Shown: positions 1 to 38,516, numbered from the stretch's first letter. The stretch is 64,000 bases of DNA from Candidatus Eiseniibacteriota bacterium (GCA_016178685.1 JACOSU010000081.1:722-64721); one strand, 5' to 3'. The notes: generated from the sequence alone by a model not told the origin. Numbers and translations are program-made.

Positions 1-1425
1 CCAGACTCCGCTCGCCCCCGACATCGCCTGATCGAGCCTCGGATCGAGCCGCGGCGGATCCGAGGCGAAGCCCAGCCAGAACGGCACGAGCGGAAGCGGG
101 CCCCGATAGTAGTAGATCATGGGATCGATCGAGTTGACCGCCAGCACTTTCTCTCCGGCCACCGCGCGCGCGGCCACCAGTGCGGCCGCTCCGCGATGAT
201 CGTCCTTGCCGTAGCGCGGGTCGAAGTAGTGGTGCGAAAGCGAAGCCGCCCACAGCACCGCCACCGCGCCCGCCATGATCCAGCGCGCTCGGGGCTTCAG
301 GTCGACCAGCGCCGCCGCGATCAGGAGCAAGAACGCCGGATACGACGCGGCGAGATAACGCGGACGGAACGCCTTGAAGTTGGAGAGCGCGAACCAGCTC
401 ACGACCGCGGCCGGAGCCGCCAGCCACAGAGCCGCATCACCGAGCCGCCGCCGCCGGCGGAGCGCCGCCAGCCCCGCGAACCCCAGCCCTGCGAACACCA
501 GGGCGGTCGCGGCGATCTCCAGGGCGTGGCGCGCGAGGGTGCAGGCCGACGAATCGGCGATCAGCTCGCGCAGCGAGGGTCCCAGCGTGTAGCCGACCGC
601 GAAACTGTGGATCGCGAACGGCAGCGCCGCGGCGTGAAACGTGGCGGCGCCGCGCAGCCGCTCCTCGCTCGCCGCCCGCTCACGACCCGGATGCAGCCGC
701 TGCCAGTCCCACGTGCGAAGCGCCTGCGGCGCCCACGGCAGCGCGAGCGCCGCCAGCGCGACCCCGGCGATCGCCGCAAAGCGCATGCGACGGGCGCGGG
801 CGCCGGAATCGGCGAGCCACCAGCGCAGGTGAAGCGGAAGCACGAACGCGAACGACGGATTCGCGAGCAGGCCCACGATCGAGGCCGTGGTCCACGCGAA
901 CGCGGTGCGGGCGCGCGCCGCGCGCGACAGCTCCAGCATCAGGGCGCCGCTCACGCATGTGAACAGGATCAGCATCGCGTAGGGCCTGGCCTCCTGCGAA
1001 TACCACACCAGAAACGGCGAAACCGCGGCCAGCCACGCCGCCCACTCGGCCTCTCGCCGGCCCAGCCAGCGCGCGGCCACCCACGCCATCGCCGGCACCG
1101 TGGCGACGCCGCACAGCGCCGACGGCAGGCGCAGCGTCCACTCGTCTGAACCGCGGAGCGAGGCCACCGCGTGCACCAGAAGCGCGTAAAGCGGACCGTG
1201 CACGTTGCCGGTCAGGTCCCGCACGCCGAACGCGCTTCCCACGTTCGCGCTGTACCAGGTGAGCACCTCGTCGATCCACAGGCTCTGCGCGCCGAGACGA
1301 TAGAAGCGCAGCGCCGCCGCCACGACGGTTGCGGCGAGCACGGACCAGGCGAAGGCCGGAGACGGGACGAAAGGCGCGAAGGGCGGAGACGACCGGGAAT
1401 CGAGAGGCTCGGACTTCTGGTTCAT
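1..1425 (-). CDS. GT-C family polytopic membrane glycosyltransferase (PMT_2/ArnT-like). The 3' end runs off the left edge of the window; the start is ATG at 1425..1423.
   Basis: My own minus-strand translation gives MNQKSEPLDSRSSPPFAPFVPSPAFAWSVLAATVVAAALRFYRLGAQSLWIDEV... followed by many hydrophobic segments. It is absent from the ORF track because there is no in-window stop. It lies in the same operon as the downstream sugar transferase. Confidence 0.55.
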   Translation of the reverse strand, partial: MNQKSEPLDSRSSPPFAPFVPSPAFAWSVLAATVVAAALRFYRLGAQSLWIDEVLTWYSANVGSAFGVRDLTGNVHGPLYALLVHAVASLRGSDEWTLRLPSALCGVATVPAMAWVAARWLGRREAEWAAWLAAVSPFLVWYSQEARPYAMLILFTCVSGALMLELSRAARARTAFAWTTASIVGLLANPSFAFVLPLHLRWWLADSGARARRMRFAAIAGVALAALALPWAPQALRTWDWQRLHPGRERAASEERLRGAATFHAAALPFAIHSFAVGYTLGPSLRELIADSSACTLARHALEIAATALVFAGLGFAGLAALRRRRRLGDAALWLAAPAAVVSWFALSNFKAFRPRYLAASYPAFLLLIAAALVDLKPRARWIMAGAVAVLWAASLSHHYFDPRYGKDDHRGAAALVAARAVAGEKVLAVNSIDPMIYYYRGPLPLVPFWLGFASDPPRLDPRLDQAMSGASGVW

Positions 1426-1430
1426 TCCCG

Positions 1431-2363
1431 TCAGTATGCGCCCTCCCGGGACAGCACGGCGGGGATGGTGCGCAGGAGGATCTTGAGGTCGAGCATCGGG
1501 GACTGCTGCCGGATGTATTCGAGGTCGAGCCGCATCCACTCCTGAAACCCGATGCGGCTGCGACCGCTGATCTGCCACAGGCACGTGAGGCCGGGGCGCA
1601 CATCGAGGCGGTGCAGCTGCCATGGCTCGTACTGCGCCACCTCCTCGGGAATCGGCGGCCGCGGGCCCACCAGTGACATCTCGCCGGCGAGCACGTGGAA
1701 GAATTGCGGGATCTCGTCGATGCTGGTGCTGCGCAGGAAGCGGCCAATGCGTGTGATGCGCGGATCGTTGCTGATCTTGAAGACCGGTCCGTCCGCTTCG
1801 TTCAAGTGCGTGAGGTGGTGGCGGTGACGATCCGCTCCGTTCACCATCGAGCGCAGCTTGTAGAACGTAAACGGCCGGCCACCCCGGCCGATGCGCGTGG
1901 ACTTGTAGAATACCGGGCCTCGCGACTCCAGCTTGATCGCGAGCGCGGCGAGCAGCAGCACCGGCGATGTCAGCACCAGCGCGACCGTGGCGCCGAACAG
2001 ATCGAGAACGCGCTTTCCGGCTCGGGAGTAGAACCCTTGCTCGCGCTCGAGGGCCAGATGGGCCACTCCCTGCGGCACCGAAGCCAGCGAGACGGAGGCT
2101 CCGACCGTGACCCACAGGCGCGCCTCCGCGGCATGCTCAACGCCGTTGGAGTGAGCAGCGCGCGCGACGCCGTTGGTGGCATGCGGATGAGGAGCCGTCG
2201 AAGTGTAGGCCGGCGCGGCTGTCATGCTGAGACTCTCCACCGGGAGGCTGGACGCGGTAGGCTGGACCCGCGCGGACCACTCGGGTTCGCGGGCCATCGG
2301 TTCGCTGGGGGTAGCGAGGACGTCGGGCTCCATGATGCCGCTCTGATGTTGTGCCGCCCGCAC
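1431..2363 (-). CDS. Polyprenyl-phosphate sugar-phosphotransferase (bacterial sugar transferase, WbaP/PglC-like initiating enzyme). The N-terminal start is uncertain (alternative M at 2333).
   Basis: The C-terminal domain carries the hallmark motifs KLRSM, DEIPQFFHVLAGEMSLVGPRP and TCLWQISGRS, and there is a TM helix before the catalytic domain. Confidence 0.85.
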   Translation of the reverse strand: MRAAQHQSGIMEPDVLATPSEPMAREPEWSARVQPTASSLPVESLSMTAAPAYTSTAPHPHATNGVARAAHSNGVEHAAEARLWVTVGASVSLASVPQGVAHLALEREQGFYSRAGKRVLDLFGATVALVLTSPVLLLAALAIKLESRGPVFYKSTRIGRGGRPFTFYKLRSMVNGADRHRHHLTHLNEADGPVFKISNDPRITRIGRFLRSTSIDEIPQFFHVLAGEMSLVGPRPPIPEEVAQYEPWQLHRLDVRPGLTCLWQISGRSRIGFQEWMRLDLEYIRQQSPMLDLKILLRTIPAVLSREGAY

Positions 2364-2819: not shown

Positions 2820-4340
2820 GTGGCAGGCATTGAAAATGCGCGTCCAGTGCGGCTGAAATCAAGCCCGCGCCGCGGTTCGGCCGGGGCGGGCGAAGCCCGG
2901 GTGAACGGCGGCCTGGATCGCGCGCCCGCGGCGGGCCTGGGGCAATCCACCCCGCTCGCGGCGCATTCTCCCCTTCCGGCACGGGTCGCGGAACCTGGCC
3001 CGCGCCCGGCAGACGCGGGTTCGGCCCGGATCTCGATCGCGATCTGGCTCGCTCTCGCAGCCGCGTTCGTGGCCTCGCGCGCACCCCTCATTTCTCATGG
3101 TTACGGATCCGATCCGGACGCGTGGCGGAACGCGGTGGCCGCGCTTCACATGAGGGCCGCGGGCCGCTACATCCCATCGCGGCCCCCTGGATTCCCCGTT
3201 TTCGAAGGGCTGATGGCGCTGCTCGTTCCCTGCGGATGGATCGCGACCAATCTCGCGGCGGTGATCGCCGAGCTCGGTGCGATCGCAGCGTTCGCGATGG
3301 TGCTCGCACGACGCGGCGTGCGCGAGAGGCTGTGGCCGCTGATCGCGTTCGCGTTCGGTGCGGCGCTGTGGGTGCATGCCACGCAGACCATGGATTACGC
3401 GTTCGGGCTCGCGTTTTTTCTCGCCGCCTACGCGGCACTGCTCTCGCGACAATTCACGTGGGCAGGCGTGATGCTGGCGCTCGCCGTCGGCTGCCGTCCG
3501 AGCTATGGCCTGCTGCTGGTCCCCGCGGCGACGTTTCTCTGGATGCGCGGCCGGCTCGCCGCCGTCGTTTCATTCGCGGTCGGATTCGCGCCGGCCGTGC
3601 TCGTGGTCGAAGCCCCGGTGCTGTTCGCTCCCGAAACGCGCGACCTCGCGGGTCATCTCGCGCGCCACGCCGCGCATCACGCCACGGGCTCGACGCTGAT
3701 CCCGCTGCTGCGGGGGTCGGTGGTGTTCCTGATCGGCAAATGGGCGGCGGCTGCGTTCGCGATCGCGGTTCCGCTCGCCGCGGCGCGGCGCATGCGAGGT
3801 TCGCGGCCCGCGGAAGCACCGCCCGATCGCGCGGCGTTCGCGTTCGAGGTGCTCGCCGCGGTCGCGGTCGCTGGCTTCTTTCTCGTCATCCCGTATGAAC
3901 CGGCGTACTTGCTGCCCGTGCTGCCGCTGATTCTGATCACGGCCGCTCGTGCACTGCCGCGGCCCTGGACGGCGGTGGTCGCGATCGCGATGGCGCTTCA
4001 GTCCCTCCTGTCGTTCGAGTTTGCCGATCGTCGTCTTGCTCCGGGCGACCTGTTCGTCGAGCTGGCCGAGCGGCACGCCCTGCTCGACCGGTCGAACTCC
4101 CAGCTTGCCGCGCGCCCCACGGCACCCACCGCGTACACGATCGGGCGCTTCGGCATCCACCGGCTGATCGCGCTGGGTGGCGGCCTCGAGGTCGGTGCCG
4201 CCGGATGGTCTTCGTTCAGCGCTTCCGGGGTCGCGCTGCAATCGAGCGACGGGCGGCGCATCTACGCCGAGCGGTTCACCGCGGCCGGGGCGGAAAGCTT
4301 GAGAAACTCGGGCTGGCGGATCCGGGGTGAGGCTCCGTGA
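2820..4340 (+). CDS. GT-C family polytopic membrane glycosyltransferase (ArnT/PMT_2-like). The true start is probably downstream of 2820.
   Basis: There are more than 10 hydrophobic helices. The first loop, SHGYGSDPDAW...RYIPSRPPGFPVFEGLMALLVP, resembles the ArnT/PMT periplasmic loop. Its neighbour is a DPM1-like GT2. Confidence 0.55.
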   Translation: MAGIENARPVRLKSSPRRGSAGAGEARVNGGLDRAPAAGLGQSTPLAAHSPLPARVAEPGPRPADAGSARISIAIWLALAAAFVASRAPLISHGYGSDPDAWRNAVAALHMRAAGRYIPSRPPGFPVFEGLMALLVPCGWIATNLAAVIAELGAIAAFAMVLARRGVRERLWPLIAFAFGAALWVHATQTMDYAFGLAFFLAAYAALLSRQFTWAGVMLALAVGCRPSYGLLLVPAATFLWMRGRLAAVVSFAVGFAPAVLVVEAPVLFAPETRDLAGHLARHAAHHATGSTLIPLLRGSVVFLIGKWAAAAFAIAVPLAAARRMRGSRPAEAPPDRAAFAFEVLAAVAVAGFFLVIPYEPAYLLPVLPLILITAARALPRPWTAVVAIAMALQSLLSFEFADRRLAPGDLFVELAERHALLDRSNSQLAARPTAPTAYTIGRFGIHRLIALGGGLEVGAAGWSSFSASGVALQSSDGRRIYAERFTAAGAESLRNSGWRIRGEAP

Positions 4341-4517
4341 GGCGCATGCTCTCTCGAGGTCCCCGTCGCGAGGTCCGCGCGAGCGCATTCCTGTGCTATT
4401 CTCTTTCGCCCATCGCATCGTCCGCCCGCAGCGCGAGCGCGCGTGGACGCGCCGCGCGGCTCGGCTCGGCTCGCCGGGTGCTTTGCCCCCGCCCACGATG
4501 TTCTCGGAGGAAGATTG

Positions 4518-5282
4518 GTGACGTTCTGGCTCACTCTTCCCGCCTACAACGAGGAACGTTCGCTCCCCGCGCTGCTCGAGCGCTGCGTACCGCTCGCGCG
4601 AGACCTTGATGCGATGGGAGAGCGGCTTCGCGTGCTGGTGGTGGATGACGGCAGCCGGGACGGGACCATCGCGGCGGCGCGAACCTTCGAAGGCCGGCTC
4701 GGGATCGAGGTGGTGCCGCACGTCGTCAACCGCGGCCTGGGCGCTGCGCTCAGAACCGGGATCGCAGCGGCGCTCGAGCGCGCCTCGGACGACGACCTGA
4801 TCGCGACCATGGACGCCGATAACACGCACGATCCGGCGCTGATTCCCGAGCTGCACCGGCGCATGCGCGAAAAGAGCGCCGACGTGGTGATCGCGTCGCG
4901 CTACGCGCCGGGCGGCGCGGAAGTGGGGCTGACCTCGCTGAGAAGGGTGCTCTCGCGCGGCGCGAGCTTCCTCCTCACGGTCATGACTCCGGTCGCGGGC
5001 GCTCGCGATTACACGTGCGGCTTCCGGCTCTATCGCGCCTCGACGCTCCGGCGCGCGGCCCGGGCCTGGGATGACGCCCTGATCGAGGAGGCGGGCTTCA
5101 CGTGCATGGCGGAACTGCTGCTCAAGCTCGGGCGCGGCGGCGCGCGCGTGGCCGAATCGCCTCTGGTGCTGCGCTACGACCTCAAGGAGGGCGCCAGCAA
5201 GATGAAGATGATGCGCACCATCTCGCGCTATTTCGCGCTGATCCGCCGCATCCGCTCGCGACCGCTGCCGCGCGTGGCGTGA
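4518..5282 (+). CDS. GT2 family polyprenyl-phosphate glycosyltransferase (DPM1/ArnC/GtrB-like).
   Basis: Motifs LTLPAYNEE, VVDDGSRDGT, DADNTHDP and a C-terminal amphipathic tail. GTG start at 4518 is preceded by GGAGG at 4507..4511. Confidence 0.8.
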   Translation: MTFWLTLPAYNEERSLPALLERCVPLARDLDAMGERLRVLVVDDGSRDGTIAAARTFEGRLGIEVVPHVVNRGLGAALRTGIAAALERASDDDLIATMDADNTHDPALIPELHRRMREKSADVVIASRYAPGGAEVGLTSLRRVLSRGASFLLTVMTPVAGARDYTCGFRLYRASTLRRAARAWDDALIEEAGFTCMAELLLKLGRGGARVAESPLVLRYDLKEGASKMKMMRTISRYFALIRRIRSRPLPRVA

Positions 5283-5369
5283 GGTTCAGAGGATGTTCGA
5301 GGATGATCGAGTGAGGGACCGCCGCGGCTCGCCGGGTCCGCCCTGCCAGGCATCGACCGGAGCGTCGAG

Positions 5370-7001
5370 ATGAGCCTCCATCGTGACGCGCCGCCGACCG
5401 GCAACGCCGCCGGCGCGCGCAAGCGAGTGCCGTTCGGTGACGTGTTCACAATCGGGCTCGCGGCGCTGGGCGCGCGGCTCTTCGCGTTGCCCGGATCGGG
5501 GCCCGAAACTCTGGGGCCCGACTCCGCCCATTTTCTCAATGTCGCCCGCTGCTTCGTCCGCGGCCAGGGTTTCTCGAATGTCGAAGCGTGGCCGTCGTGG
5601 ATGCACCCGGCGCGACTTCCGAGCCCCGAGACGTTCAAGGAGCCGGCCTATTCGTGGCTGATCGCTGCGGGGGCGCGCCTCGGCTGCGATCCGTTCGCCA
5701 CCGGCCGGATGATCGCGCTCTTGGCGGGCATTCTGATCCCATGGCTGACCTACGCGCTCGCGCGCGCCATCCATCCGGAACGCAGAGTGGCGCTGCTCGC
5801 GGGGCTGCTCGCGGCGTGCAGTCCGCTCTTGATTCAGCATTCCGTGGTGGTGACGGCCGACACGCTGTTCGCCGCGCTCACGACCGCCATGTTTCTCGCG
5901 GCCTGCGAGGGAGCGCGCGCGACCGGAGCCGTGCGCAGGTCGGTGTTCGACCTCGCCACCGGAGCCTGCTTCGGTCTCGCCTACCTGACGCGGGCCCAGG
6001 TGATGCTCGCGGTCCCCGCGCTCCTCGTGCTGTGGCTCGGACGCCCTACCCTGAGGTCGCGGCTTCAGAGCGTGGCGCTCGCGTTCTCCGCCGCCGTGGT
6101 GCTCGCTTCGCCCCTGCTGCTGCGAAATCTCCGGCAGTTCGGCGAGCCGCTCCACAGCGACGTGGTGCGGCTCGGCATCCTGCCGTACCTGGACCAGTTC
6201 GTGGTCTACAACTCGATCGACCTGCCCCCGGCAGCGATTCCCTACGCGCTCGCCCACCCCGCGCAGGTGGCCGCGCGCGTCGCCTCGAGCCTGCAAGGCC
6301 TGGCGCTGTCCACGTTCCCGCACAACATCCTCGGTCATCCGGTCTGGATGCTGCAGTTCGTCGCGGGGTTGCTGCTCGGACTCGGGCAGCGACGAGCACT
6401 CGGCTTCGCGTATCTCTACGGTGCGGTGACCGTCGCCTTCATCGCCGCCGTGTGGTGGGCGCCCTATTATTTCTGCAGCCTGACGCCGATCGCCTGCCTG
6501 TTCACCGCGATCGGCGCGGGCTGGATCGCCGATCGGATCGGCGATGTGCCGCTGGCTGGACCGGTCACCGGGGGTGCCCTGTTGTTCGCGACGCTCGCCG
6601 TGACGCTTCTGCTTCAGGTCGGCGTCGCGCGCCGCGATGTGCGCGCTTACCACGACCCGGAACTTGCCGCAACGCTGCACGAGGCTCCGTTCCTGCGCGC
6701 GCACCTGGCGCCCGGCGAATCCGTGATGGTGATGAAGACGTCGTACTGGGCCTGGTTCACCGACCACCCGGCCGTGAGCTTCACGCTCGCGGACGAGCCG
6801 CGTTTCATGGAAGTGATCCGGCGCCTTCGGGTGCGTTACGCGGCGCTGCCCACCAGCCTGTTGCCGAAGCTGGCCGCCCGGTCGCCATCGGGACGCCTGC
6901 CGCGCTCGCTGGTGTTCGATCACGCGGATTCCGCGCGCGATGTGACGGTGTTCCGGATCGAGGATCCGGCCGGTGCCGAGGGCGGCCATGCCACTCGATG
7001 A
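5370..7001 (+). CDS. GT-C family membrane glycosyltransferase (ArnT/GT83/GT39-like).
   Basis: N-terminal TM region then PAYSWLIAAGARLGCDPFATGRMIALLAGILIPWLTYALARAI, a typical ArnT/PMT_2 core. About 12 TM helices plus a C-terminal soluble domain. Confidence 0.7.
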   Translation: MSLHRDAPPTGNAAGARKRVPFGDVFTIGLAALGARLFALPGSGPETLGPDSAHFLNVARCFVRGQGFSNVEAWPSWMHPARLPSPETFKEPAYSWLIAAGARLGCDPFATGRMIALLAGILIPWLTYALARAIHPERRVALLAGLLAACSPLLIQHSVVVTADTLFAALTTAMFLAACEGARATGAVRRSVFDLATGACFGLAYLTRAQVMLAVPALLVLWLGRPTLRSRLQSVALAFSAAVVLASPLLLRNLRQFGEPLHSDVVRLGILPYLDQFVVYNSIDLPPAAIPYALAHPAQVAARVASSLQGLALSTFPHNILGHPVWMLQFVAGLLLGLGQRRALGFAYLYGAVTVAFIAAVWWAPYYFCSLTPIACLFTAIGAGWIADRIGDVPLAGPVTGGALLFATLAVTLLLQVGVARRDVRAYHDPELAATLHEAPFLRAHLAPGESVMVMKTSYWAWFTDHPAVSFTLADEPRFMEVIRRLRVRYAALPTSLLPKLAARSPSGRLPRSLVFDHADSARDVTVFRIEDPAGAEGGHATR

Positions 7002-7158
7002 GGGCGCCGCGGCCGATGCGATTCGCACGATGGATTGCGAAGAGCCCGCCCGCCCGCGCCGTGGAGTGCGAGGTTCCGTTTTCGAATCGTGGGCGTGGCG
7101 CGACGACGCGCGATTCCTTGCCCGCGGCCGGACCCCGCTGATAGACTTTTCATCCGGT

Positions 7159-7182
7159 TCCATCCGGGTGTCTCCGGATGGA
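7159..7182 (+). other. Stem-loop with a perfect 9-bp stem (tccatccgg / ccggatgga) and a 6-nt loop, in the 213-bp spacer upstream of the GT2 gene. The catccgg motif is also repeated at 7151..7157.
   Basis: Read directly from the sequence ttccatccgggtgtctccggatgga. No U-run follows, so it is not a classical intrinsic terminator. It may be an attenuator, an RNA processing site or a protein-binding site. Confidence 0.3.
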
Positions 7183-7214
7183 CGAACCCCGCAACGCACC
7201 TTTCACCCTCCCGA

Positions 7215-7889
7215 ATGCACCGCGATCTGAAGCTCAGCGTCGTCATCCCCTGCTATAATGAAGAAGATGGCGTGCGCGAAGTCATCGGGCGCATGCCGAA
7301 GGCGGTGGATGAAGTCGTCGTCGTCGACAACAACTGCACCGACCGCACGGCCGAGGTGGCGCGCGGCCTGGGGGCGCGGGTGGTGACCGAGACCACACCG
7401 GGCTACGGTGCGGCCTACAAGGCCGGATTGCGCGCCGCCTCGGGGGACGTCGTCATCACGCTCGACGGCGACGGCACCTACCCGCCCGAAGAGATCCCGC
7501 GGCTGGTGGAGGAACTCGTGGACCATGGCTGGGACTTCCTTTCGGCGAGCCGCTTTCCGCTCACCGACCCGAACGCCATGCAGTTCACGAACCGGCTCGG
7601 CAACGGGGTGCTGACGGTGGCGACGGCGGTGTTGTTCTTCAAGCCGATCCGCGACAGCCAGTCGGGGATGTGGGTGTTCCACCGCAGCGTGCTCGATCGC
7701 ATGCGCCTCACGTCCGACGGCATGGCGTTCAGCGAGGAGATCAAGCTCGAGGCCCTGCTGCGGGGCCTCAAGTTCGGAGAGGGTCACATTCCGTACGGAG
7801 AGCGCATCGGCGAGGTGAAACTTCAGAAGTGGCGCGACGGCTGGGAGAATCTCGCATTCCTGGTGCGGAAACGTTTGGGAGCGGTGTGA
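7215..7889 (+). CDS. GT2 family glycosyltransferase (DPM1-like polyprenyl-phosphate sugar synthase).
   Basis: MHRDLKLSVVIPCYNEEDGV, VVVDNNCTDRT, ITLDGDGTYPPEE and FSEEIKLEAL. ATG at 7215. Confidence 0.8.
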   Translation: MHRDLKLSVVIPCYNEEDGVREVIGRMPKAVDEVVVVDNNCTDRTAEVARGLGARVVTETTPGYGAAYKAGLRAASGDVVITLDGDGTYPPEEIPRLVEELVDHGWDFLSASRFPLTDPNAMQFTNRLGNGVLTVATAVLFFKPIRDSQSGMWVFHRSVLDRMRLTSDGMAFSEEIKLEALLRGLKFGEGHIPYGERIGEVKLQKWRDGWENLAFLVRKRLGAV

Positions 7890-9346
7890 TGGCGATGTCG
7901 GTTCGGCTCAAGCACTGGTGGCACGCCGATCGCGATCCTCTGATGCGGGTGATTCAAATTCTCGCCGTGGTGGCGCTCGGCATCGTGATCGGGACGCAGT
8001 ACATGACGCCCGACAAGCGCATGCTCTCGGTGGCGGCGGGGGCCCTCGTGTTCGGAATCGCATGGCGCCTCGACACCCTGACCGGACTCGGCCTTCTGAT
8101 CATCGCATTGCCCTATCCGCGCCCCACCGTGTTCGGGGGCACGAACTTCGCATTCATCCTGTTACTGCTGCTGATCTGGCTGCTGCGCGTCGCGCAGCGC
8201 ATGAGTCCTCGGCCGCGTGCGACGCCGCTGGACATCCCGATCGCCGGGTGGGTGCTGGCCTACGCGATCTCGTTTTACAATGTCGCGAACGCGGAGGACC
8301 TGGGCTACGCCATGCAGAGTACGGAGCAGTTCATCGTATGTCTTCTGCTCTTCTATCTGCTGGTCAGCAACATCCGGACCGTGGCCGATCTACAGCGCAT
8401 ACAGGCGTTCCAGGCGGTCTCGCTCGCCACCATCCTGCTGATCGCCGTCTACGAGCTGAACCATCCGAACGGAACCCTGATTCCGGGATGGATCATCTTC
8501 ACGAACACGTCGGGCGGCGAATTCAACTTGAAGAACGTGCGGGTGGGCGGTCCGTTCTTCGACTTCGAACTGCTCTCGGAGTTCTGTGCGGTGAGCAGCC
8601 TGCTCGTGGCGTTCCTGTATCTGCGCGCGCGCTCGATCTATGGCCGCGCCGCGCTCGCGGCGCTGCTCCTGCTCGACATCTTCGTGCTGTTCGCGACCGT
8701 CACGCGCGGCGCGATGATCTCGCTCGGCGTGGGCCTGCTGTACCTGCTGTTCCGGGTGCGGCGGCGCGTGCGCGTGGTCCCGCTCACGCTGGTGGCGGGC
8801 GCGATCGCGGGGTTGGCGACCGGAATGAATTTCTTCGTCTCCCACTTCACGCGCTCGGGCGATGTGGGGGCCCGGCTCCGGGGGACGCATTTCGTGGGCC
8901 TGGTGCCCGACAGCCGCGTGCAGGCGTGGGCCGGCGCCTGGGACCGTTTTCTCGAACATCCCTTGATCGGCCATGGCCCCTACTACTCGTCGCAAACCGG
9001 ATCGCACATCTGGTACTGGCCGCACAACGGATATCTGTACATTGCGAATCTGTTCGGCCTGTTCGGCCTGACGTTCTACTTCGCGCTGCTGATCACGCTC
9101 TTCAGAATCACGAACCGGTCGAGCGAGGATCTTCACGATCCGGATTACGCGCGCGCGTTCCTGCTGGTCGCGAACGTTCAGCTCGTGGTCTTCATCGTCG
9201 ATCAGATCAAGATCGACTACCTGCGCAACACGATCTACCAGTTCGAAGTGTGGGTGATGTTCGCGATGATGGTCGCCGCCTCCCGCGTGGCTCAGTCCGA
9301 AACTGTTCGCGCGAAGATCACGCGGCCATTGCCGTTCGCGGCATGA
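7889..9346 (+). CDS. O-antigen ligase / Wzy-type polysaccharide polymerase family membrane protein (Wzy_C-like).
   Basis: About 10-12 TM helices. The characteristic periplasmic loop reads LFATVTRGAMISLGVGLLYLLF...HPLIGHGPYYSS, with the R and H/G motifs of the O-antigen ligase/polymerase family. Its start shares 1 nt with the preceding stop (TGATG). Confidence 0.7.
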   Translation: MAMSVRLKHWWHADRDPLMRVIQILAVVALGIVIGTQYMTPDKRMLSVAAGALVFGIAWRLDTLTGLGLLIIALPYPRPTVFGGTNFAFILLLLLIWLLRVAQRMSPRPRATPLDIPIAGWVLAYAISFYNVANAEDLGYAMQSTEQFIVCLLLFYLLVSNIRTVADLQRIQAFQAVSLATILLIAVYELNHPNGTLIPGWIIFTNTSGGEFNLKNVRVGGPFFDFELLSEFCAVSSLLVAFLYLRARSIYGRAALAALLLLDIFVLFATVTRGAMISLGVGLLYLLFRVRRRVRVVPLTLVAGAIAGLATGMNFFVSHFTRSGDVGARLRGTHFVGLVPDSRVQAWAGAWDRFLEHPLIGHGPYYSSQTGSHIWYWPHNGYLYIANLFGLFGLTFYFALLITLFRITNRSSEDLHDPDYARAFLLVANVQLVVFIVDQIKIDYLRNTIYQFEVWVMFAMMVAASRVAQSETVRAKITRPLPFAA

Positions 9347-9410: not shown

Positions 9411-10478
9411 ATGCGTGATGCGCCGCGCCGCGGCTCCGGAGCGCGGCGCGTGAGCGTGAACGTGAAGGCGCTCGAGCCCGCCGGCTTCGCGCGGTGGGAC
9501 GACTACATCCAGCGCGCACCCGGGTCGAACTTCGCATCGCGCAGCGGGTGGAAGGGCGTGGTCGAGAGTCAGTTCGGCTGCCGGTCCGACTGGCGCTACG
9601 CCGAGCGCGACGGACGCGTGGTGGGCGTGCTGCCGCTGTTCGAGAAGCCCGCAGGCGGAAGGGCGCGCATGCTGTTCTCGGCGCCCGGCGGCCTGCTCGC
9701 CGACGACGAGGAGGCCGCGGCCGAGCTGCTGTCTCCGGCGCGCGAGCGCGTCCGGAGCGAGAAGCTCGAGCTGATCGAGCTGCGCGATCAACGCCGGCGC
9801 TGGGACGGACTCGAGACCAGCGAGGAGCATTGCACCATGATCCTGCGGCTCGAGGCGGACGTGGACGCGCAATGGAAGGCATTCGGCTTCAAGCTCCGCA
9901 ACAAGATCCGCAAGGCTCAGAAAAGCGATCTCACGACGCGCTGGGGACCGGAGCATCTCCCGGCGTGGCACCGCGTGATGCTCGAGAACCTGCGCGACCT
10001 CGGCACCCCGCTGCCCGGCGCCGGCTACTTTCGCGCGGTGCTGGATGCCTACGGCCCGGACATCGAGATCGAAGTGCTGGAATGCGGGGGCCGCACGATC
10101 GGCGCGCTGGCCGCGGTGCGCCATGCCGACGGATGCGCGAACCCGTGGTCGTCTTCGCTGCGTTCCGAACGCGACCGCTGCCCCAATCACATGCTCTACT
10201 GGGACGCGATCCAGCGGGCGATCGGCCAGGGTCTCAAGTGGTTCGATTTCGGGCGCAGCCAGTGGAACAGCAACACGTTCGAATTCAAGCGGGGCTGGGG
10301 CACCGAGCCCGCGCCGCTCTACTATCAGTACGTGCTCGGCACCGCGAAGCGCGTGCCCAGCCTTGATGATCAGAAACGGGCGTTCGCGCTCGCCGTGTGG
10401 CTGTGGCAGCGTCTCCCGCTCGCCGCGGCCGGCGCGCTGGGACCGGTAGCGCGGCGGCGTTTCCCGGAGGCGTTATGA
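9411..10478 (+). CDS. FemAB-like / BioF2-like GNAT-fold acyltransferase, of the type associated with PEP-CTERM EPS loci (TIGR03019-like).
   Basis: Size ~355 aa. Contains LPLFEKPAGGRARMLFSAPGG, WGPEHLPAWHRVMLENLRDLGTPLPGAGYF and a C-terminal WFDFGRS...FKRGWG, which is the FemAB-family fold pattern. It sits in an operon with polysaccharide-modifying enzymes. Confidence 0.5.
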   Translation: MRDAPRRGSGARRVSVNVKALEPAGFARWDDYIQRAPGSNFASRSGWKGVVESQFGCRSDWRYAERDGRVVGVLPLFEKPAGGRARMLFSAPGGLLADDEEAAAELLSPARERVRSEKLELIELRDQRRRWDGLETSEEHCTMILRLEADVDAQWKAFGFKLRNKIRKAQKSDLTTRWGPEHLPAWHRVMLENLRDLGTPLPGAGYFRAVLDAYGPDIEIEVLECGGRTIGALAAVRHADGCANPWSSSLRSERDRCPNHMLYWDAIQRAIGQGLKWFDFGRSQWNSNTFEFKRGWGTEPAPLYYQYVLGTAKRVPSLDDQKRAFALAVWLWQRLPLAAAGALGPVARRRFPEAL

Positions 10479-10981
10479 AGCGGATCGAGGGCCGCACCGA
10501 CCGGCAGGAGTACGAGCGCCGCATCGCGCCACGCAGCCTGCTGCGCATTCTGTGGCAGAAGCAGCTGCACATCCTGGCGCGCGTCACGATTCCGCTCGGG
10601 GCGCGCCTCGCGATCTATCGCGCGATGGGGATCCGCATCGGCCACGGCGTTTTCGTGGGCCTCGACACTTACCTCGGCTGCCAGTTCCCGGAGCTGATCG
10701 AGATCGAGGACGACGTGACGATCTCGTTCCGCGTCACGGTCGTGGTGCACGATGACGCGCGCCGCATGAGCGGCGTCATTCCCGGCCAGCTTGAGGGAAC
10801 CGTCGCCCCGGTGCGGTTCAGGCGCGGCTGCTATATCGGCGCCGGAGCGCTGATCCTGCCCGGCATCACGGTGGGCGAAGGCGCGGTGGTCGCGGCCGGC
10901 GCGGTTGTGACGCGCGACGTGCCACCGCACCAGGTGGTGGCGGGCGTCCCGGCGCGCACGATCAAGGAAACCGACGGATGA
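10475..10981 (+). CDS. Hexapeptide-repeat (left-handed beta-helix) O-acetyltransferase, WbbJ/WcaF/maltose-acetyltransferase-like.
   Basis: Repeats IGHGVFVG...IEIEDDVTISFRVTVV...GCYIGAGALILPGITVGEGAVVAAGAVVTRDVPPHQVVAGVPAR. Its ATG overlaps the upstream stop (ATGA). Confidence 0.8.
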   Translation: MKRIEGRTDRQEYERRIAPRSLLRILWQKQLHILARVTIPLGARLAIYRAMGIRIGHGVFVGLDTYLGCQFPELIEIEDDVTISFRVTVVVHDDARRMSGVIPGQLEGTVAPVRFRRGCYIGAGALILPGITVGEGAVVAAGAVVTRDVPPHQVVAGVPARTIKETDG

Positions 10982-13116
10982 CGCAACCATCGCGCGCGAT
11001 CCGCGGAGTCGCGACCGCGTGCGCGCTCGCGCTGATCGTGATCCTCTCGGAATTTCTGCGCGGCGTCCCCGGCGAGATCGCGCTCTACCCGCTGCTCGGC
11101 GCATTCCCCGGACTCGCGCTCGGCTGGGCGCTGCTGCCGCGCGCGTCCTCCACCACGCGCTGGGTGGTGGGGCTGGTGCTGGCGCCGCTCGCGAGCTCGA
11201 TCGCGGGCTGGGCGCTGCTGGCCGCGGGAATCCACGCCGCCGCCGCGGCGCGGGCGATCGGCTGGGTGGCGTGGGCGTTGTGGGCGGTTCAGCTCGCGCG
11301 CGAGCGGGCGGAATCCTCGCCCCGCGATGCCGCGCGCGCGAGAGACGTCGCCCGCGCGGCCGCGACCGGATCGCCGGGAGCCCCGGATGCGAACCCCGAT
11401 CCCGGCGACCGGACGCCGACGAGCGGCGCGGTGTGGGCGCTCAGCCTTGGCCTCTCACTCGCGATCGCGATTCCCCATTTCATCAATCCGTGGATGCTGG
11501 TCAAGTCCGACGCCTGGAATCACTGCGGGATCGTGTATCAGATTCTCGAGCGCGGCATGCCGCCCGAGGATCCGCGCTTCGCCGGACTTCACCTGAACTA
11601 CGTGTGGTTCTTCAATCTATTCGTGGGGCTCCTGTCGAGCGTCCACGACGGCGATCCGTTCGTGTTCATGAGCACACTCAATGTCGCCGACGTGGCGCTC
11701 ATCGCGTGGCTCGCCTACCTCGCGGGATGGATGCTGTGGCGCCGTTGCGAGGGGGCGCTCGGCGCGGCGCTGCTCACCTGTTTCGGATTCAACGCGTTCA
11801 TGTACCTGACATGGCCGTTGCGAGGACTGCGCGGGATGTCGGGGCTGCCGAATGGCGGGGGGGGGCCCACCTGGACGCTTCCGGCGCTCCACCTCGACTC
11901 CTCGCGCGTCCTCAACGACCTGGGCGCCCCGCATTCCTGGATCGAGAATTTCTTCGACAAGTTCATCGTCGGCACGTCGATCAACTATGCATGGCTGATG
12001 ATGATCCTGTTCCTGTGGGCCCTCGTCCGCCTGATGCGCGGGCGCGCCGGCGGCGTGTGGCTGATCGCCGCGCTGGCCGCGGCCGGAATGCAGTTGTGGC
12101 ATGGCGTCGTGGGCCTCTCGGTGGTTCCGGTCGCGGCCTGCACCCTGGTCCTCACGCTCGCGCTCCGTTCCGGGTGGAGATGGCTCCCGCCCGCTTCGCG
12201 CCTGCTGGATTTTGCGGCCGCGACGGCGGTCGGATTTTTCGCGGTGACCGGTTACACCCTGTCCATCTCGCGTGGGTGGGACGCGAAACAGACCGGGCTC
12301 CACGTCTCGCCGCTCCATCTGGATCCGATCGTGACGATCACGCTGGTCACGTCGTGCGCGCTGGCGGCGGCGCTGGCATGGAAACCGATGGTCTCCACGC
12401 TGCGCGGGCGCCGCGGGGACGCCGCGCCGCTCGTGGCCTATGCGGTTGGGATGTACGTGTTTTCGCTTCTGATCGCGCTGCCGAACCAGAACGAGGCCAA
12501 GTTCGCGTTCGAGGCATTCGTGCCGCTCGCGTTGTTTGGCGGGCCCGTGTTCACGGCGTGGGCGGGACGGATCCGCGCGCGCGCGGGCGCGCCGGGGATC
12601 GTCGCGCTGGCCGTGCTGCTCGCGGCGCCGCATGTGCTGACGCTGGTGGGCTTCACGCTCGATCGCGAGCGGAACACCTATCCGGCGCTCCACCCGGCCC
12701 CGGGTGAGACGGCGCTCTACGACCGGATCCGGGCGCAGACGCCTCGCGGAATGGTGTTCGTGGACGATCACTACCGCGATCTGATCATGGTGCGCGCGCG
12801 GCGGCAGATGTACCTGGGCTCGGCTTCGGGCCCCGAGCGCGCCGCCTTCCCGCTCGCACAGGTCATCGAGCGCCGAGCCGTGATGGCGGACCTCTATGGC
12901 CCGGCGCGCGATCTGGATCGCGATGTCGCCTCTCTTGCGCAGCTCGGCCGTCCGGCATGCGTGGTGTTCCGATCGCAGGACGTTCCGGCGGGCGCGCGGC
13001 CGGGCGCGGCGCTCGAGAGGCGGCCTGACCTGTTCCGGCGCTGGTACGACCACGACGGCTTCGTGCTCTATGCTGTCGCGACACCGTCCTCGACATCCGG
13101 AGCCGCACGCCCATGA
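10978..13116 (+). CDS. Large (712 aa) polytopic integral membrane protein of unknown function. It may be a GT-C-like glycosyltransferase or a polymerase-type protein.
   Basis: It has more than 12 hydrophobic helices and a ~150 aa C-terminal soluble domain. ATGA overlaps link it to both neighbours. I could not recognise a diagnostic motif. Confidence 0.5.
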   Translation: MTQPSRAIRGVATACALALIVILSEFLRGVPGEIALYPLLGAFPGLALGWALLPRASSTTRWVVGLVLAPLASSIAGWALLAAGIHAAAAARAIGWVAWALWAVQLARERAESSPRDAARARDVARAAATGSPGAPDANPDPGDRTPTSGAVWALSLGLSLAIAIPHFINPWMLVKSDAWNHCGIVYQILERGMPPEDPRFAGLHLNYVWFFNLFVGLLSSVHDGDPFVFMSTLNVADVALIAWLAYLAGWMLWRRCEGALGAALLTCFGFNAFMYLTWPLRGLRGMSGLPNGGGGPTWTLPALHLDSSRVLNDLGAPHSWIENFFDKFIVGTSINYAWLMMILFLWALVRLMRGRAGGVWLIAALAAAGMQLWHGVVGLSVVPVAACTLVLTLALRSGWRWLPPASRLLDFAAATAVGFFAVTGYTLSISRGWDAKQTGLHVSPLHLDPIVTITLVTSCALAAALAWKPMVSTLRGRRGDAAPLVAYAVGMYVFSLLIALPNQNEAKFAFEAFVPLALFGGPVFTAWAGRIRARAGAPGIVALAVLLAAPHVLTLVGFTLDRERNTYPALHPAPGETALYDRIRAQTPRGMVFVDDHYRDLIMVRARRQMYLGSASGPERAAFPLAQVIERRAVMADLYGPARDLDRDVASLAQLGRPACVVFRSQDVPAGARPGAALERRPDLFRRWYDHDGFVLYAVATPSSTSGAARP

Positions 13117-13919
13117 GCGATCGACCGCCAGTTCGAACCGCAGGCACCCTGGCGACGCAGCCCGTGGCGTCCGGTGTAGCGCGACCGGCGCGCGGGGGCC
13201 CTCCGCGAGTGCTGGTGCTGATGCCGGCGCACAACGAAGAGGACAGCATCGGCGCGACCCTCGCCGAAATCCGCCGGCACCTGCCGGAGGCGGACGCGGT
13301 CGTGATCAACGATTACTCGAGCGACGCGACCACCCGGGTCGCAGAAGGGCTCGGCGCGCATGTGGTCGAGCTGCCGTGGAATCTCGGCTACGGCGGCGCG
13401 GTGCAGGCCGGATTCAAGTACGCGCTCGCGCACGATTACGACTTTGTGATTCAGATGGACGCCGACGGCCAGCACGATCCCGCGAGCGCGCGCGACCTGC
13501 TCGCTCCGGTGCTGGCCGGCACCACCGACGTGGCGATCGGCTCGCGTTTTCTCGGCAGCGTCCGGTACCGCATTCCGGCTTTTCGCCGGTTCGGCATGAG
13601 CGTGTTCGGAGCGATCGTCACGTTCGTGACGCGCCGCAGCTTCTCGGACCCCACGTCGGGCTACCAGGCCATGAACCGCCGCGTGATGGAATTCTTCGCG
13701 CGCGACAATTACCCGAGCGATTTTCCGGACGCCGACACCATCATCCTGCTCGCGCTCGCCGGATTCCGCGTGAGCGAGGTGCCGGTCACGATGCAGGCGC
13801 GCGTCGCCGGCGCCTCGATGCACTCGAACCTGAAGGCGATCTACTACGTTTCGAAGATGACGCTGTCGATCCTGATGGTGCTTCTGCGTCACCGGCGGCT
13901 GCGCGCCTCGGCACCATGA
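13113..13919 (+). CDS. GT2 family polyprenyl-phosphate glycosyltransferase (DPM1/GtrB-like). It is a paralog of the gene at 41132..41842.
   Basis: VLVLMPAHNEEDSI, VINDYSSDAT, QMDADGQHDP and a C-terminal TM tail. ATGA overlap with the upstream gene. Confidence 0.8.
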   Translation: MSDRPPVRTAGTLATQPVASGVARPARGGPPRVLVLMPAHNEEDSIGATLAEIRRHLPEADAVVINDYSSDATTRVAEGLGAHVVELPWNLGYGGAVQAGFKYALAHDYDFVIQMDADGQHDPASARDLLAPVLAGTTDVAIGSRFLGSVRYRIPAFRRFGMSVFGAIVTFVTRRSFSDPTSGYQAMNRRVMEFFARDNYPSDFPDADTIILLALAGFRVSEVPVTMQARVAGASMHSNLKAIYYVSKMTLSILMVLLRHRRLRASAP

Positions 13920-14794
13920 CCGGCTCTGGATTTCATCCTGCGGCGGTCTCGTTCGACATCGAGGACTGGTTCCACCCCGAACTGCTCCGCGGTCACGTCG
14001 CGCCGGACGATTCGCGCAGCGTGGTGCGCCAAGGCACCCACGCGATCCTCCTCCTGCTCGAGCGTCGCCGGGTCCCGGCCACATTCTTCGTGCTGGGCGA
14101 CGTCGCGCGACGCCACCCCGATCTGGTGCGCGCGATCGAAGCGGGCGGGCACGAAATCGCCTGCCACGGCATGACGCACCGGCCGCTCTGGAATCTCGAT
14201 CGGGAAAGTTTCCGCGGCGAGCTGCGCGACTTTCGCGCCGCGATTCGCGCGGCGCTCGGGCACGACCGCGCGGTGGGATTCCGCGCCCCCACGTTCAGCC
14301 TCGACCGATCGACCGCGTGGGCGCTCGATGTGCTGAGTGAAGAGGGCTTCAGGTGGGACTCGAGCGTGTTCCCGCTGCGCGTTGGCCTTTATGGGGTCCC
14401 GGGCGCGCCACTCGGCATCTATCGACCCTCCCGGTCGAACCTCGCGCGCCACGATCCGCGCGGCGCTCTGGTGGAATTCCCGGTCGCGGTCGGCGCTCTG
14501 GGGCCGCTGCGGCTTCCGGTCGCGGGTGGATTCTACCTGCGCGCGCTGCCGCTCGCGCTGATTCAGACCACGCTCGATCGCATCGCGCGTCGGCGCCCGT
14601 TCGCGCTCTACCTTCACCCCTGGGAATGCGCGCCGGACCTGCCGCGCGTGCGGCTCGCTCCCGCCGATGCGTTCGTCACCTACTGCAATCTCGGCACCGT
14701 GATGCGCAAGCTCGATGCGCTGCTCGGGCGTTACGCGTTCATGACCATGTCCGGCATCCTCGAGCGGTACGCGCCGCTCGCGCCGGCCGCGTGA
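13916..14794 (+). CDS. Polysaccharide deacetylase family protein (NodB-like; resembles the PEP-CTERM-locus subfamily TIGR03006).
   Basis: The N-terminus VSFDIEDWFHPELL, together with FFVLGDVARRHPDLVRAIEAGGHEIACHGMTH and LHPWE, gives the NodB-type DxD / H-H metal motifs. ATGA overlap with the upstream GT2. Confidence 0.7.
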   Translation: MTGSGFHPAAVSFDIEDWFHPELLRGHVAPDDSRSVVRQGTHAILLLLERRRVPATFFVLGDVARRHPDLVRAIEAGGHEIACHGMTHRPLWNLDRESFRGELRDFRAAIRAALGHDRAVGFRAPTFSLDRSTAWALDVLSEEGFRWDSSVFPLRVGLYGVPGAPLGIYRPSRSNLARHDPRGALVEFPVAVGALGPLRLPVAGGFYLRALPLALIQTTLDRIARRRPFALYLHPWECAPDLPRVRLAPADAFVTYCNLGTVMRKLDALLGRYAFMTMSGILERYAPLAPAA

Positions 14795-14809: not shown

Positions 14810-15211
14810 ATGCCATCCGCCGTGATGTACACCGGGATCCAGCTTCGCACCCAGCTGTTCGTGGTGGCGGTCGGGATCGCGATGCTGCTGTTCATCCTGA
14901 ATCTCGTGAGACGCAAGCAGCTGCGCGAGCAATACTCGCTGCTGTGGATTTTGTCGGCGGTGGTGCTGGTGCTGAGCGCGGTGTTCATCCGCTCGGTGGA
15001 CCGGCTGGCGCACGTGGTGGGAATCTACTATCCGCCCGCGTTTCTGTTCCTGATCGCGATCCTGATGGTGCTGATCCTGCAGTTCCACTTCTCGACCGTG
15101 ATCTCGAACCTGCGCGAGCAGAACAAGAGCCTCACGCAGGACCTCGGCATCCTGAGCGCCGAGGTACGTGAGCTGCGCCGCGCTCTCGAGGCGCGGGGCC
15201 GCACGACGTGA
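14810..15211 (+). CDS. Small 3-4 TM membrane protein (DUF2304-like), the usual partner of DPM1-like GT2 enzymes. It is a paralog of the gene at 40740..41120.
   Basis: 133 aa with LLFILNLVRRKQLREQYSLLWIL...IYYPPAFLFLIAILMVLILQFHF and a C-terminal coiled tail. GGAGG lies 8 nt upstream of the ATG. Confidence 0.55.
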   Translation: MPSAVMYTGIQLRTQLFVVAVGIAMLLFILNLVRRKQLREQYSLLWILSAVVLVLSAVFIRSVDRLAHVVGIYYPPAFLFLIAILMVLILQFHFSTVISNLREQNKSLTQDLGILSAEVRELRRALEARGRTT

Positions 15212-15693
15212 ACACGCCCGGCCACGCGGAAACTCGCGGCGCCGCGACTCACGGTGCGGCGGCCGACATCGCGGCTGCCGACGTCGCCGAGGCCACGGAC
15301 GACGCCACGGCGCGGCGCGTGGCGCGTTTCCTGATCCGCGAGGAGCCGCGACCCGAAGAGATCGCACGCTGGCGAGACGCGGTGCGCGCGCACGGCGCGG
15401 CGCTCACGCGCGAGCGCGACCGGAGGCTGTGGAGCCTGCTGCGCTCGGCGCCATGGCTCACGAGCATGGTGGATGCGGGTCTCGCGCTTTCGGACCCGCA
15501 TTCCCCGGTGCGCCACCGCCACTACCTGATGCTGGTGGTGCTCGAAGCCTCCCCCCATCACACCCGGCGCTTCCTGCCGTGCGATACTTCACGCTTCGCG
15601 TTGATCGCGCTCGGCGGGCGCATGGTCCTTGCCGTCTTGAGCGCGACGCTCGGCGTCGTGCTGGTGCGGGCCACGGCGTGGATCTGGCGATGA
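15208..15693 (+). CDS. Hypothetical protein (161 aa) with a hydrophobic C-terminus. It may be a small partner subunit of the downstream GMC oxidoreductase.
   Basis: GTG start overlaps the upstream stop (GTGA). Codon usage is consistent with the neighbours. No recognisable domain. Confidence 0.35.
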   Translation: MNTPGHAETRGAATHGAAADIAAADVAEATDDATARRVARFLIREEPRPEEIARWRDAVRAHGAALTRERDRRLWSLLRSAPWLTSMVDAGLALSDPHSPVRHRHYLMLVVLEASPHHTRRFLPCDTSRFALIALGGRMVLAVLSATLGVVLVRATAWIWR

Positions 15694-19893: not shown

Positions 19894-19969
19894 CGCGCGA
19901 CCTCGCGGGACGGCATGAGAGAGAGTCCGGGTTCGGCGACGATCCGCCGTCGCGGCCATCGAGTCTAAA

Positions 19970-25167: not shown

Positions 25168-25476
25168 TGAAGCCTCGAGTTCTGGGGGTGAGGGCGCCTC
25201 GGCCGGGGGGCCGTGGAAGGCGAACGTGGGGTCGGCGGCGGGCGCACGTCGGTTGAGTTTATCACGTGCGCGTGCGCCAGTTCCACCGCGCGGCGAGGCG
25301 GGTTCGGGCGCGCAAATGGTAGAATGGAGAGCCCGCAGGCTCCCTGCGGGGCCACATCAACGCGAAGCCCGGGCCCCACCCCGTGCACGCCCCGCCCGAC
25401 GCAATCCGGCGGTTGCGCGCGGCGGCGTGTTGCGCCACCTTGGGCGGGATCGGAAGTGCTGCTCGAGGAGGCGTTC

Positions 25477-27195: not shown

Positions 27196-27347
27196 ATCGT
27201 GGGCGCCTGGACGAGGCGGCCCCGAGCACCTCGCCCGCCGGCGCCTCCGGTCGGCAGCGACGCCTTGCGGCTGCATTCGGCCCCGGCTAACGTAGGGTGC
27301 GTTTCGAACGCGCCACGCTGGCGGCGGCGGCGGCCCCGGCCATCGAG

Positions 27348-27938: not shown

Positions 27939-27941
27939 GTC

Positions 27942-28190: not shown

Positions 28191-28192
28191 CG

Positions 28193-29338: not shown

Positions 29339-29356
29339 CGCCAGGGACCTAGGGAC

Positions 29357-38400: not shown

Positions 38401-38516
38401 GGGGGGAGTTCCGATCAGCCCGCGCGGCCGCGGCGGGACACCTGGCGGGCGGCGGTTCGCTCGCATAGTATTGAAGCACTCATGCACATCCATTCGACCC
38501 GTTTTCCCTCACGATC

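Follow-up and report, generated by a model that had tools for sequence, protein, structure and literature searches.

Gene content of the locus

We analysed a 64,000-nt stretch of DNA from Candidatus Eiseniibacteriota bacterium (GCA_016178685.1, JACOSU010000081.1:722-64721), hereafter the window, in which a preliminary description made from the sequence had noted a series of family 2 glycosyltransferases (GT2) paired with polytopic membrane glycosyltransferases of the GT-C class. The flagged range, 2820-7889, consists of four consecutive plus-strand genes encoding a GT-C, a GT2, a PMT_2/PMT-type GT-C and a further GT2. Seven GT-C and four GT2 genes were found in the window as a whole, set among the genes of an exopolysaccharide (EPS) locus. 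By Pfam annotation the latter comprise an initiating phosphoglycosyltransferase (PGT), three GT4 enzymes, two Wzx proteins, Wzy, a chain-length determinant, a kinase-like ATPase and a Wza-type exporter (families Bac_transf, Wzy_C, Wzx, Wzz, AAA_31 kinase-like and Poly_export); aminotransferase genes, oxidoreductase genes and an acyl-activation cassette are also present. The locus resembles XrtA/PEP-CTERM EPS loci, and several of its proteins score just under the NCBIfam cut-offs of models associated with those systems. NCBI names of identical proteins (locus tags HYR73_03885 and HYR73_03920) also place the window in a metagenome-assembled genome (MAG) of Candidatus Eisenbacteria. Because the window is ~69% G+C, raw lists of open reading frames (ORFs) are rich in spurious frames; genes were called from codon-position GC and then confirmed with Pfam.

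Seven GT-C glycosyltransferases

The GT-C candidates are as follows; the PMT_2 gathering cut-off is 26.1 bits.

1-1425, minus strand: GT-C of PMT_2 type, read from an N-terminus at 1425 and truncated at the C-terminal end by the window edge; PMT_2 35.1 bits, Agl23-like TIGR03663 match.
2820-4340 (longest ORF), plus strand: GT-C of a rare unnamed (444-aa) family; homologues are 430-470 aa long, so the real start is probably at ~2994-3024.
5370-7001, plus strand: GT-C of PMT_2/PMT type; PMT_2 54 bits and PMT 29 bits, both above gathering scores; ~11 transmembrane (TM) segments.
10978-13116, plus strand: GT-C of 712 aa, from a family almost confined to Candidatus Eisenbacteria; additional TM helices at the N-terminus and an alpha/beta periplasmic domain at the C-terminus.
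18241-19959, minus strand: GT-C with a borderline PMT_2 match (26.2 bits); AftB-type arabinofuranosyltransferase model, E = 6e-12.
25213-27195, plus strand, probable start 25477: GT-C of PMT_2/PMT type; PMT_2 31.8 bits, PMT 27 bits.
34163-36889, minus strand: GT-C of 908 aa, a distant paralogue (hhalign) of the 10978-13116 protein with an added C-terminal domain; weak DUF6541 match.

PMT_2 scores above the gathering threshold in four of these proteins, while the other three (2820, 10978 and 34163) have no significant family match. All seven contain 7-15 hydrophobic segments in a crude hydropathy scan, and in six of them an acidic motif following an early TM helix is conserved across orthologues or family members. 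This motif is W-[IV]-D-E after TM1 in 8/8 orthologues of the 1-1425 protein, G-x-D-x-D in 18/18 members of the 2820-4340 family, D-x-A-H in 8/8 orthologues of the 5370-7001 protein and E-E-V-E in 4/4 orthologues of the 25213-27195 protein; S-D-x-x-x-H is invariant in both the 10978 and the 34163 families. For 18241-19959, T-V-D-D-A-F was found after TM1, read from a single sequence. The two GT-C structure models are helical bundles, and AftA, AftB and AftD are among the GT-C fold matches. Candidates were assigned by structural similarity to solved GT-C enzymes or by membership of a GT-C Pfam family. The fold called for in the preliminary description is thus present, and the acidic motifs after an early TM helix presumably correspond to the first-loop motif that it named. 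Every GT-C gene named there exists and belongs to the class proposed, although the count is seven rather than "5-6".

When the 34163 and 10978 families were compared as profiles in hhalign, they matched across 587 columns (probability 99.2%, E = 6.5e-20), and their S-D-x-x-x-H and D-P-R motifs fell in register. The 34163 family has 465 representatives; D175, H179, D208 and R210 are invariant in it. No Pfam, NCBIfam or PDB sequence match was obtained for the 444-aa family or for the 712-aa/909-aa families, and we found no literature on either group; PDB sequence and profile searches with the GT-Cs likewise returned nothing significant. Tyrosine-kinase matches of the 10978 family in PDB (E ~0.1) reflect a chance 35-residue match and were discarded. 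Recent duplication was rejected as the source of the GT-Cs: a single pair shows BLASTP similarity (E = 0.003), and the profiles designated A1 and A4 are unrelated. We also rejected as a GT-C the 497-aa product of 19970-21463 (minus strand), which has three N-terminal TM helices, is mostly a soluble domain and has no family match.

In both the 712-aa and the 909-aa family, the canonical GT-C core is preceded by a shared extension of several additional TM helices (residues 1-130 of the 10978-13116 protein). In the 712-aa protein this N-terminal extension carries invariant residues of its own (L40, G41, P44, G45, P70 and L71).

Four short GT2 enzymes and two DUF2304 proteins

The GT2 genes and the small membrane proteins associated with them are:

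4518-5282, plus strand: polyprenyl-phosphate sugar synthase-like GT2, 254 aa, no predicted TM helix; PF00535 88 bits; best NCBIfam matches PpgS and ArnC.
7215-7889, plus strand: polyprenyl-phosphate hexose synthase-like GT2, 224 aa; PF00535 93 bits; dolichyl-phosphate hexose transferase 131 bits, AglJ 124.5 bits.
13113-13919, plus strand: polyprenyl-phosphate sugar synthase-like GT2, 268 aa; PF00535 79 bits; PpgS 85 bits, AglJ 80 bits; PDB matches only to DPMS and ArnC.
41132-41842, minus strand: polyprenyl-phosphate sugar synthase-like GT2, 236 aa; PF00535 93.9 bits; PpgS 97 bits; PDB matches only to ArnC, DPMS and GtrB.
14810-15211, plus strand: DUF2304 small membrane protein (GacJ family); PF10066 90.6 bits.
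40740-41118, minus strand: second DUF2304 (GacJ-like) small membrane protein; PF10066 63 bits; AGGAGG and ATG just after the GT2 stop.

The four GT2 genes of the preliminary description are thus all accounted for, the one placed at 41842 being the minus-strand gene 41132-41842. The starts at 4518 (a GTG with GGAGGA upstream) and 7215 were confirmed by orthologue alignment. All four proteins are short (224-268 aa) and of non-processive architecture, score 79-94 bits against PF00535 and share a D-x-D column that is invariant in the GT2 alignment; the enzymes at 13113 and 41132 are 48% identical. In every case the top NCBIfam model was PpgS, ArnC, the haloarchaeal dolichyl-phosphate hexose transferase or AglJ, whereas ordinary EPS GT2 models scored below ~30 bits. 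DPMS and ArnC also come first in PDB for all four, and for three of them all or nearly all significant matches are polyprenyl-phosphate sugar synthases. The enzyme at 4518 matches DPMS, ArnC and GtrB together with one weak unnamed glycosyltransferase (6p61), and that at 7215 matches DPMS (E = 3.9e-19), then ArnC, with soluble GT2s such as GpgS further down. These proteins therefore resemble polyprenyl-phosphate sugar synthases and not processive enzymes, as had been proposed.

One DUF2304 gene lies beside the GT2 at 41132 and the other near that at 13113. In Streptococcus pyogenes, GacI, a GT2, is bound by the DUF2304 protein GacJ, which decreases the Km of GacI for undecaprenyl phosphate and increases its Vmax several-hundred-fold (bioRxiv 10.1101/180810). 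By analogy, the protein encoded at 14810 is likely to be an activator or anchor of its GT2. Immediately downstream, the GTG start of a gene for a 161-aa protein with no family match (15208-15693, plus strand) overlaps the DUF2304 stop; this protein is conserved beside DUF2304 in related loci (L003, L004, L007, L010, L012, L034 and L038).

Gene linkage, tailoring enzymes and candidate flippases

The genes that flank the GT-C and GT2 genes include:

1431-2363, minus strand: PGT, an initiating polyprenyl-phosphate glycosylphosphotransferase (Bac_transf); PF02397 220 bits; TIGR03025 EPS_sugtrans 291.9 bits against a cut-off of 295.55.
7889-9346, plus strand: Wzy_C family polymerase or ligase; PF04932 54 bits; its ATG overlaps the stop of GT2 7215 by 1 nt (TGATG).
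13916-14794, plus strand: NodB-type deacetylase with DUF3473 (XrtA-system type); PF01522 and PF11959; TIGR03006 231.7 bits against a cut-off of 276.2.
36886-38493, minus strand: Wzx/MOP-family flippase, first of two; Polysacc_synt_3 46.7 bits, Polysacc_synt 35.5 bits.
39748-40743, minus strand: PF03706 (MprF flippase-domain-like) membrane protein; LPG_synthase_TM 168 bits.
41839-43416, minus strand: Wzx/MOP-family flippase, second of two, in a GacK-like position before GT2 and DUF2304; Polysacc_synt 75.6 bits, weak MurJ and MatE matches.

Three GT2 genes directly abut GT-C genes, one of them by an ATGA overlap, and across 2820-7889 the order is GT-C, GT2, GT-C, GT2 without interruption. The serial GT2/GT-C pairing described previously is borne out by these three adjacent pairs, whose arrangement is conserved in relatives. 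ATGA overlaps join GT-C 10978 to GT2 13113 and GT2 13113 to the NodB-type deacetylase, with DUF2304 next. A minus-strand operon contains Wzx, GT2 41132, DUF2304 and the PF03706 gene; Wzx and GT2 share an ATGA overlap, and the DUF2304 stop overlaps the GTG of PF03706 (GTGA). GT-C 34163-36889 is joined by an ATGA overlap to the upstream Wzx gene, and GT-C 1-1425 begins 5 nt downstream of the PGT stop.

The deacetylase at 13916, which adjoins the 712-aa GT-C in nearly all related loci, is a possible lipid-linked sugar de-N-acetylase. Near the GT2/DUF2304 genes lie a GMC/FAD oxidoreductase-like gene (15761-17374, plus strand) and a gene resembling those for short-chain dehydrogenases/reductases (SDR; ~17340-18219, plus strand), the L004 orthologue of which carries PF01370 Epimerase. 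Together, the deacetylase, FAD-oxidoreductase and SDR resemble ArnD and DprE1/DprE2, enzymes of on-lipid sugar tailoring, and the block is conserved in many Eisenbacteria loci.

Candidate flippases are the two Wzx/MOP proteins, one of which is presumably required for the repeat unit, and the PF03706 protein. Since there is no GtrA-family gene in the locus, the last is a candidate for the missing flippase and could serve lipid-linked sugars. In the related locus L032, a PF03706 homologue (7771-8730) lies between a GT2 and a 712-aa GT-C.

Conservation among relatives

The order PMT_2, PGT / GT-C, GT2, PMT_2, GT2, Wzy, ..., 712-aa GT-C, GT2, deacetylase, DUF2304, small protein, FAD-oxidoreductase, SDR recurs in independent MAG contigs at 40-65% protein identity; it is kept in L002, L003, L004, L007 and many Eisenbacteria loci. 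In a scan of species-representative genomes, the 712-aa family was found in 57 loci, mostly named Candidatus Eisenbacteria. Profile annotation identified a constant unit in these loci, consisting of a FemAB-like gene, the 712-aa GT-C and the deacetylase; a GT2 often lies between the last two, and the 909-aa GT-C and Wzx are often found alongside. The pair at 18241-21463 (the PMT_2 gene and that for the 497-aa protein) is absent from L004, and GT-C content therefore varies between relatives. The term "island" applied to the locus in the preliminary description is a misnomer: GC content is 65-73% throughout the 64-kb window, gene order is kept within the phylum, and horizontal acquisition was rejected on both counts.

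Proposed transmembrane glycosylation of an exopolysaccharide

From the observed gene content, folds, family relationships, conserved motifs, and gene order and its conservation, we conclude, with a probability of roughly 0.7, that this is a Wzx/Wzy-dependent EPS locus with several multi-component transmembrane glycosylation systems of the GtrABC/GacIJKL/SccNMPQ type built in. Each of the four short GT2s would act in the cytoplasm, taking one sugar from a nucleotide sugar donor and attaching it to polyprenyl phosphate; a GacJ-like membrane partner of the DUF2304 family would assist two of them. Before export, the NodB-type deacetylase and the FAD-oxidoreductase/SDR pair may modify one or more of these lipid-linked sugars. 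A Wzx-type protein, the MprF-flippase-like protein or both would then flip the sugars on their lipid carriers, and the seven highly divergent GT-Cs would transfer them, at the periplasmic face, either to the repeat unit once it has been flipped or to the polymer as it grows, where they would form side branches or extensions. The preliminary description had likewise proposed lipid-linked sugars and extensive periplasmic-side decoration of a polymer, and its reading is supported: neither membrane proteins devoid of GT-C features nor processive GT2s, the two observations it had named as contrary, were encountered.

The scheme of GT2, flippase and GT-C is established for GtrABC, ArnC/ArnT, GacIJKL, CsbB/YfhO, CsdAB/CD/EF and SccN/M with SccP/Q (PMC8035078; PMC11127046; PMC11754754), and such multi-component transmembrane glycosylation systems have been reviewed (PMC8035078). 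A close likeness in parts is to GacI, GacJ (DUF2304), GacK (Wzx) and GacL (GT-C) (10.1101/180810), in which a cytoplasmic GT2 without a TM anchor of its own acts with a DUF2304 partner, a Wzx-type flippase and a GT-C. The same parts occur in the window as Wzx 41839, GT2 41132 and DUF2304 40740, and GT2 13113 and DUF2304 14810 lie beside GT-C 10978. This is a likeness by parts, not by identity values. The GacIJKL glycan is a rhamnan made via an ABC transporter, whereas the window holds a Gram-negative-type Wzx/Wzy/Wza EPS locus, with four synthases and seven GT-Cs in place of one of each, an extra PF03706 gene and a deacetylase.

Several GT-A/GT-C pairs per organism's surface glycans are known from SccN/SccM and SccP/SccQ of Streptococcus mutans and CsdAB/CsdCD/CsdEF of Lactococcus lactis. 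The two S. mutans pairs lie in one locus (PMC11754754), and each makes a different lipid-linked donor and a different linkage. There are two or three pairs in those systems; the window has three adjacent pairs, a fourth synthase module and unpaired GT-Cs in ~43 kb, and its GT-C families are unrelated to theirs by sequence. The block at 10978/13113/13916/14810 contains the same kinds of parts as ArnC/ArnD/ArnE-F/ArnT, namely a GT2 that makes a polyprenyl-phosphate N-acylated aminosugar, a NodB-family deacylase, small membrane proteins and a GT-C. It differs in that its deacetylase is XrtA-type with DUF3473, its small protein is DUF2304 and not an SMR-like ArnE/F, scores against the ArnC and ArnT models fall far short of the cut-offs, and its context is EPS, not lipid A. 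GtrA/GtrB/GtrC O-antigen glucosylation and the three-component pentofuranose systems (GT136; Kelly et al. 2024) share with the proposed pathway a lipid-linked monosaccharide, a flippase and periplasmic modification by a GT-C after or during polymerisation of a Wzx/Wzy glycan. The window has no GtrA-family flippase, no GtrB-like C-terminal TM hairpin on its GT2s and no phosphoribosyl pyrophosphate-dependent synthase.

A number of observations weigh against this interpretation. The GT2 scores are far below NCBIfam equivalog cut-offs (66-131 bits vs 370-529; best 131 vs 375, others 66-97 vs 370), so that the class is supported while sugar and lipid-acceptor specificity is not established. The membrane association of GT2 4518 and GT2 7215, which lack both TM helices and a DUF2304 partner, is unexplained. 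No GtrA-type flippase was found among all locus ORFs, and with seven GT-Cs for four synthases the pairing is not one-to-one. The PMT_2 match of GT-C 18241-19959 exceeds the threshold by 0.1 bit. The conserved acidic motifs are presumed to lie on the periplasmic side. The organism is uncultured, and all enzymatic activities, the identities of donors and acceptors, the assignment of GT2s to GT-Cs and the roles of the flippases are deduced from the genes.

The alternative that survives best, although we consider it unlikely, is that the GT-Cs go beyond single-sugar branches and, drawing step by step on polyprenyl-phosphate monosaccharides, assemble a large glycan domain on the outer side of the cytoplasmic membrane, as Emb and Aft enzymes do in mycobacterial arabinan. 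That GT-Cs outnumber donors by seven to four suggests that each donor serves several linkages, the FAD-oxidoreductase and SDR-like genes beside the GT2/DUF2304 block are DprE1/DprE2-like, and the arabinan enzymes AftA, AftB and AftD recur among the fold matches. The best NCBIfam match of the 18241 protein is also the AftB-type arabinofuranosyltransferase, but at 44 bits vs a cut-off of 1050. Moreover, the full conventional repeat-unit pathway (PGT, three GT4s, Wzx and Wzy) suffices for a backbone, and elongating and branching GT-Cs are indistinguishable in sequence. A more far-reaching picture, which we regard as doubtful, is that of a branched surface polysaccharide built largely outside the cytoplasm by Candidatus Eisenbacteria, as the Gram-negative equivalent of arabinan assembly in mycobacteria. 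This would combine seven GT-Cs, four differently tailored polyprenyl-phosphate sugars (some de-N-acetylated or epimerised on the lipid), two undescribed GT-C families and a recruited MprF-type flippase, and the 712-aa/909-aa superfamily would contribute its extra N-terminal helices and an OST-like (oligosaccharyltransferase-like) C-terminal domain.

It is improbable that some or all of the PMT_2-type GT-Cs act instead on secreted or envelope proteins, in the manner of actinobacterial Pmt with Ppm1, or on lipid A, in the manner of ArnT; PMT-like protein O-glycosylation was the alternative named in the preliminary description. PF02366 (PMT) scores above its gathering threshold for 5370-7001 and 25213-27195 (27-29 bits), but a MIR domain was found on none of the proteins, nor was any other GT39 feature, and they were not placed in GT39/PMT. 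The 5370-7001 protein has a weak match to the NCBIfam ArnT (GT83) model, at 25.8 bits vs a cut-off of 567, and the other GT-Cs have none. Proteins sorted by XrtA/PEP-CTERM systems have been proposed to be glycosylated, and the locus, as noted above, resembles XrtA/PEP-CTERM EPS loci. Four of its proteins (9411-10478, 13916-14794, 46653-48017 and 48027-48839) match NCBIfam models associated with these systems. An XrtA/PEP-CTERM system proper, recognised by an exosortase and markers at equivalog score, was not found: the FemAB-type, deacetylase, chain-length and export markers are all sub-threshold (e.g. 250.1 vs 260.35), and neither an exosortase gene nor a PEP-CTERM substrate was present among the ORFs scanned in the 64-kb window. 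The GT-C genes are, in addition, interleaved and translationally coupled with EPS genes in a conserved arrangement.

We think it quite improbable that the four GT2s are ordinary Leloir enzymes that extend an undecaprenyl diphosphate (Und-PP)-linked repeat unit in the cytoplasm, with GT-C donors made elsewhere. PF00535 is a generic family, the more specific models fall well short of equivalog level, two of the enzymes lack a membrane anchor or partner, and soluble GT2s such as GpgS appear among the matches of GT2 7215. Against this, polyprenyl-phosphate sugar synthases rank first in both NCBIfam and PDB for all four, with classical EPS GT2 models much lower, and adjacency to or overlap with GT-C and GacJ-family genes is conserved across MAGs. 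Very improbable, finally, is the proposal that the 10978 and 34163 families are OST- or ligase-like proteins that transfer an Und-PP-linked glycan en bloc to protein or another acceptor: the WWDxG motif is absent from the family consensus, which does not place them with STT3/AglB/PglB (GT66); Foldseek puts DPY19 first, with AftA and ArnT matching about as well as OSTs (TM-scores 0.26-0.53); and gene 10978 overlaps that for a polyprenyl-phosphate synthase-like GT2 by ATGA.

Extracytoplasmic glycosylation by a GT2, a flippase and a GT-C is a recognised source of surface-glycan diversity. Most work on it has concerned pathogens and Gram-positive bacteria, in which each glycan has one to three GT-Cs. 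The mechanism proposed for the locus is one already known, and what is new is the density of the genes, with seven GT-Cs and four synthases in ~43 kb vs one to three in characterised systems, together with two GT-C families unmatched in sequence by Pfam, NCBIfam and PDB and, possibly, an MprF-type flippase for lipid-linked sugars. This EPS cluster is conserved in an uncultured environmental phylum, and GT-Cs account for about one third of its first 38 kb. Among these genes, which annotation pipelines at present call "hypothetical", are specific candidates for new CAZy GT-C families and for a flippase outside the GtrA family.

Other genes in and near the locus

At 22981-25167 (minus strand), a zinc alcohol dehydrogenase is fused to a GFO/IDH/MocA oxidoreductase in one protein of 728 aa, which is conserved in position in L004. 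Directly after GT-C 25213-27195 is a cassette (27297-30940, plus strand) for a hexapeptide acyltransferase, an acyl carrier protein, an acyl-CoA dehydrogenase and an adenylating enzyme, the last with an amino-acid adenylation domain (389 bits) and a match to the exosortase-A-type ligase model (342 bits). The cassette suggests that acyl or aminoacyl groups are added to the glycan. A NodU/CmcH-type carbamoyltransferase gene (53055-54833, plus strand) lies close to the carbamoyl-phosphate synthase genes carA and carB (56030-60423, minus strand), immediately beyond the polysaccharide locus, and may point to O-carbamoylation of a glycan.

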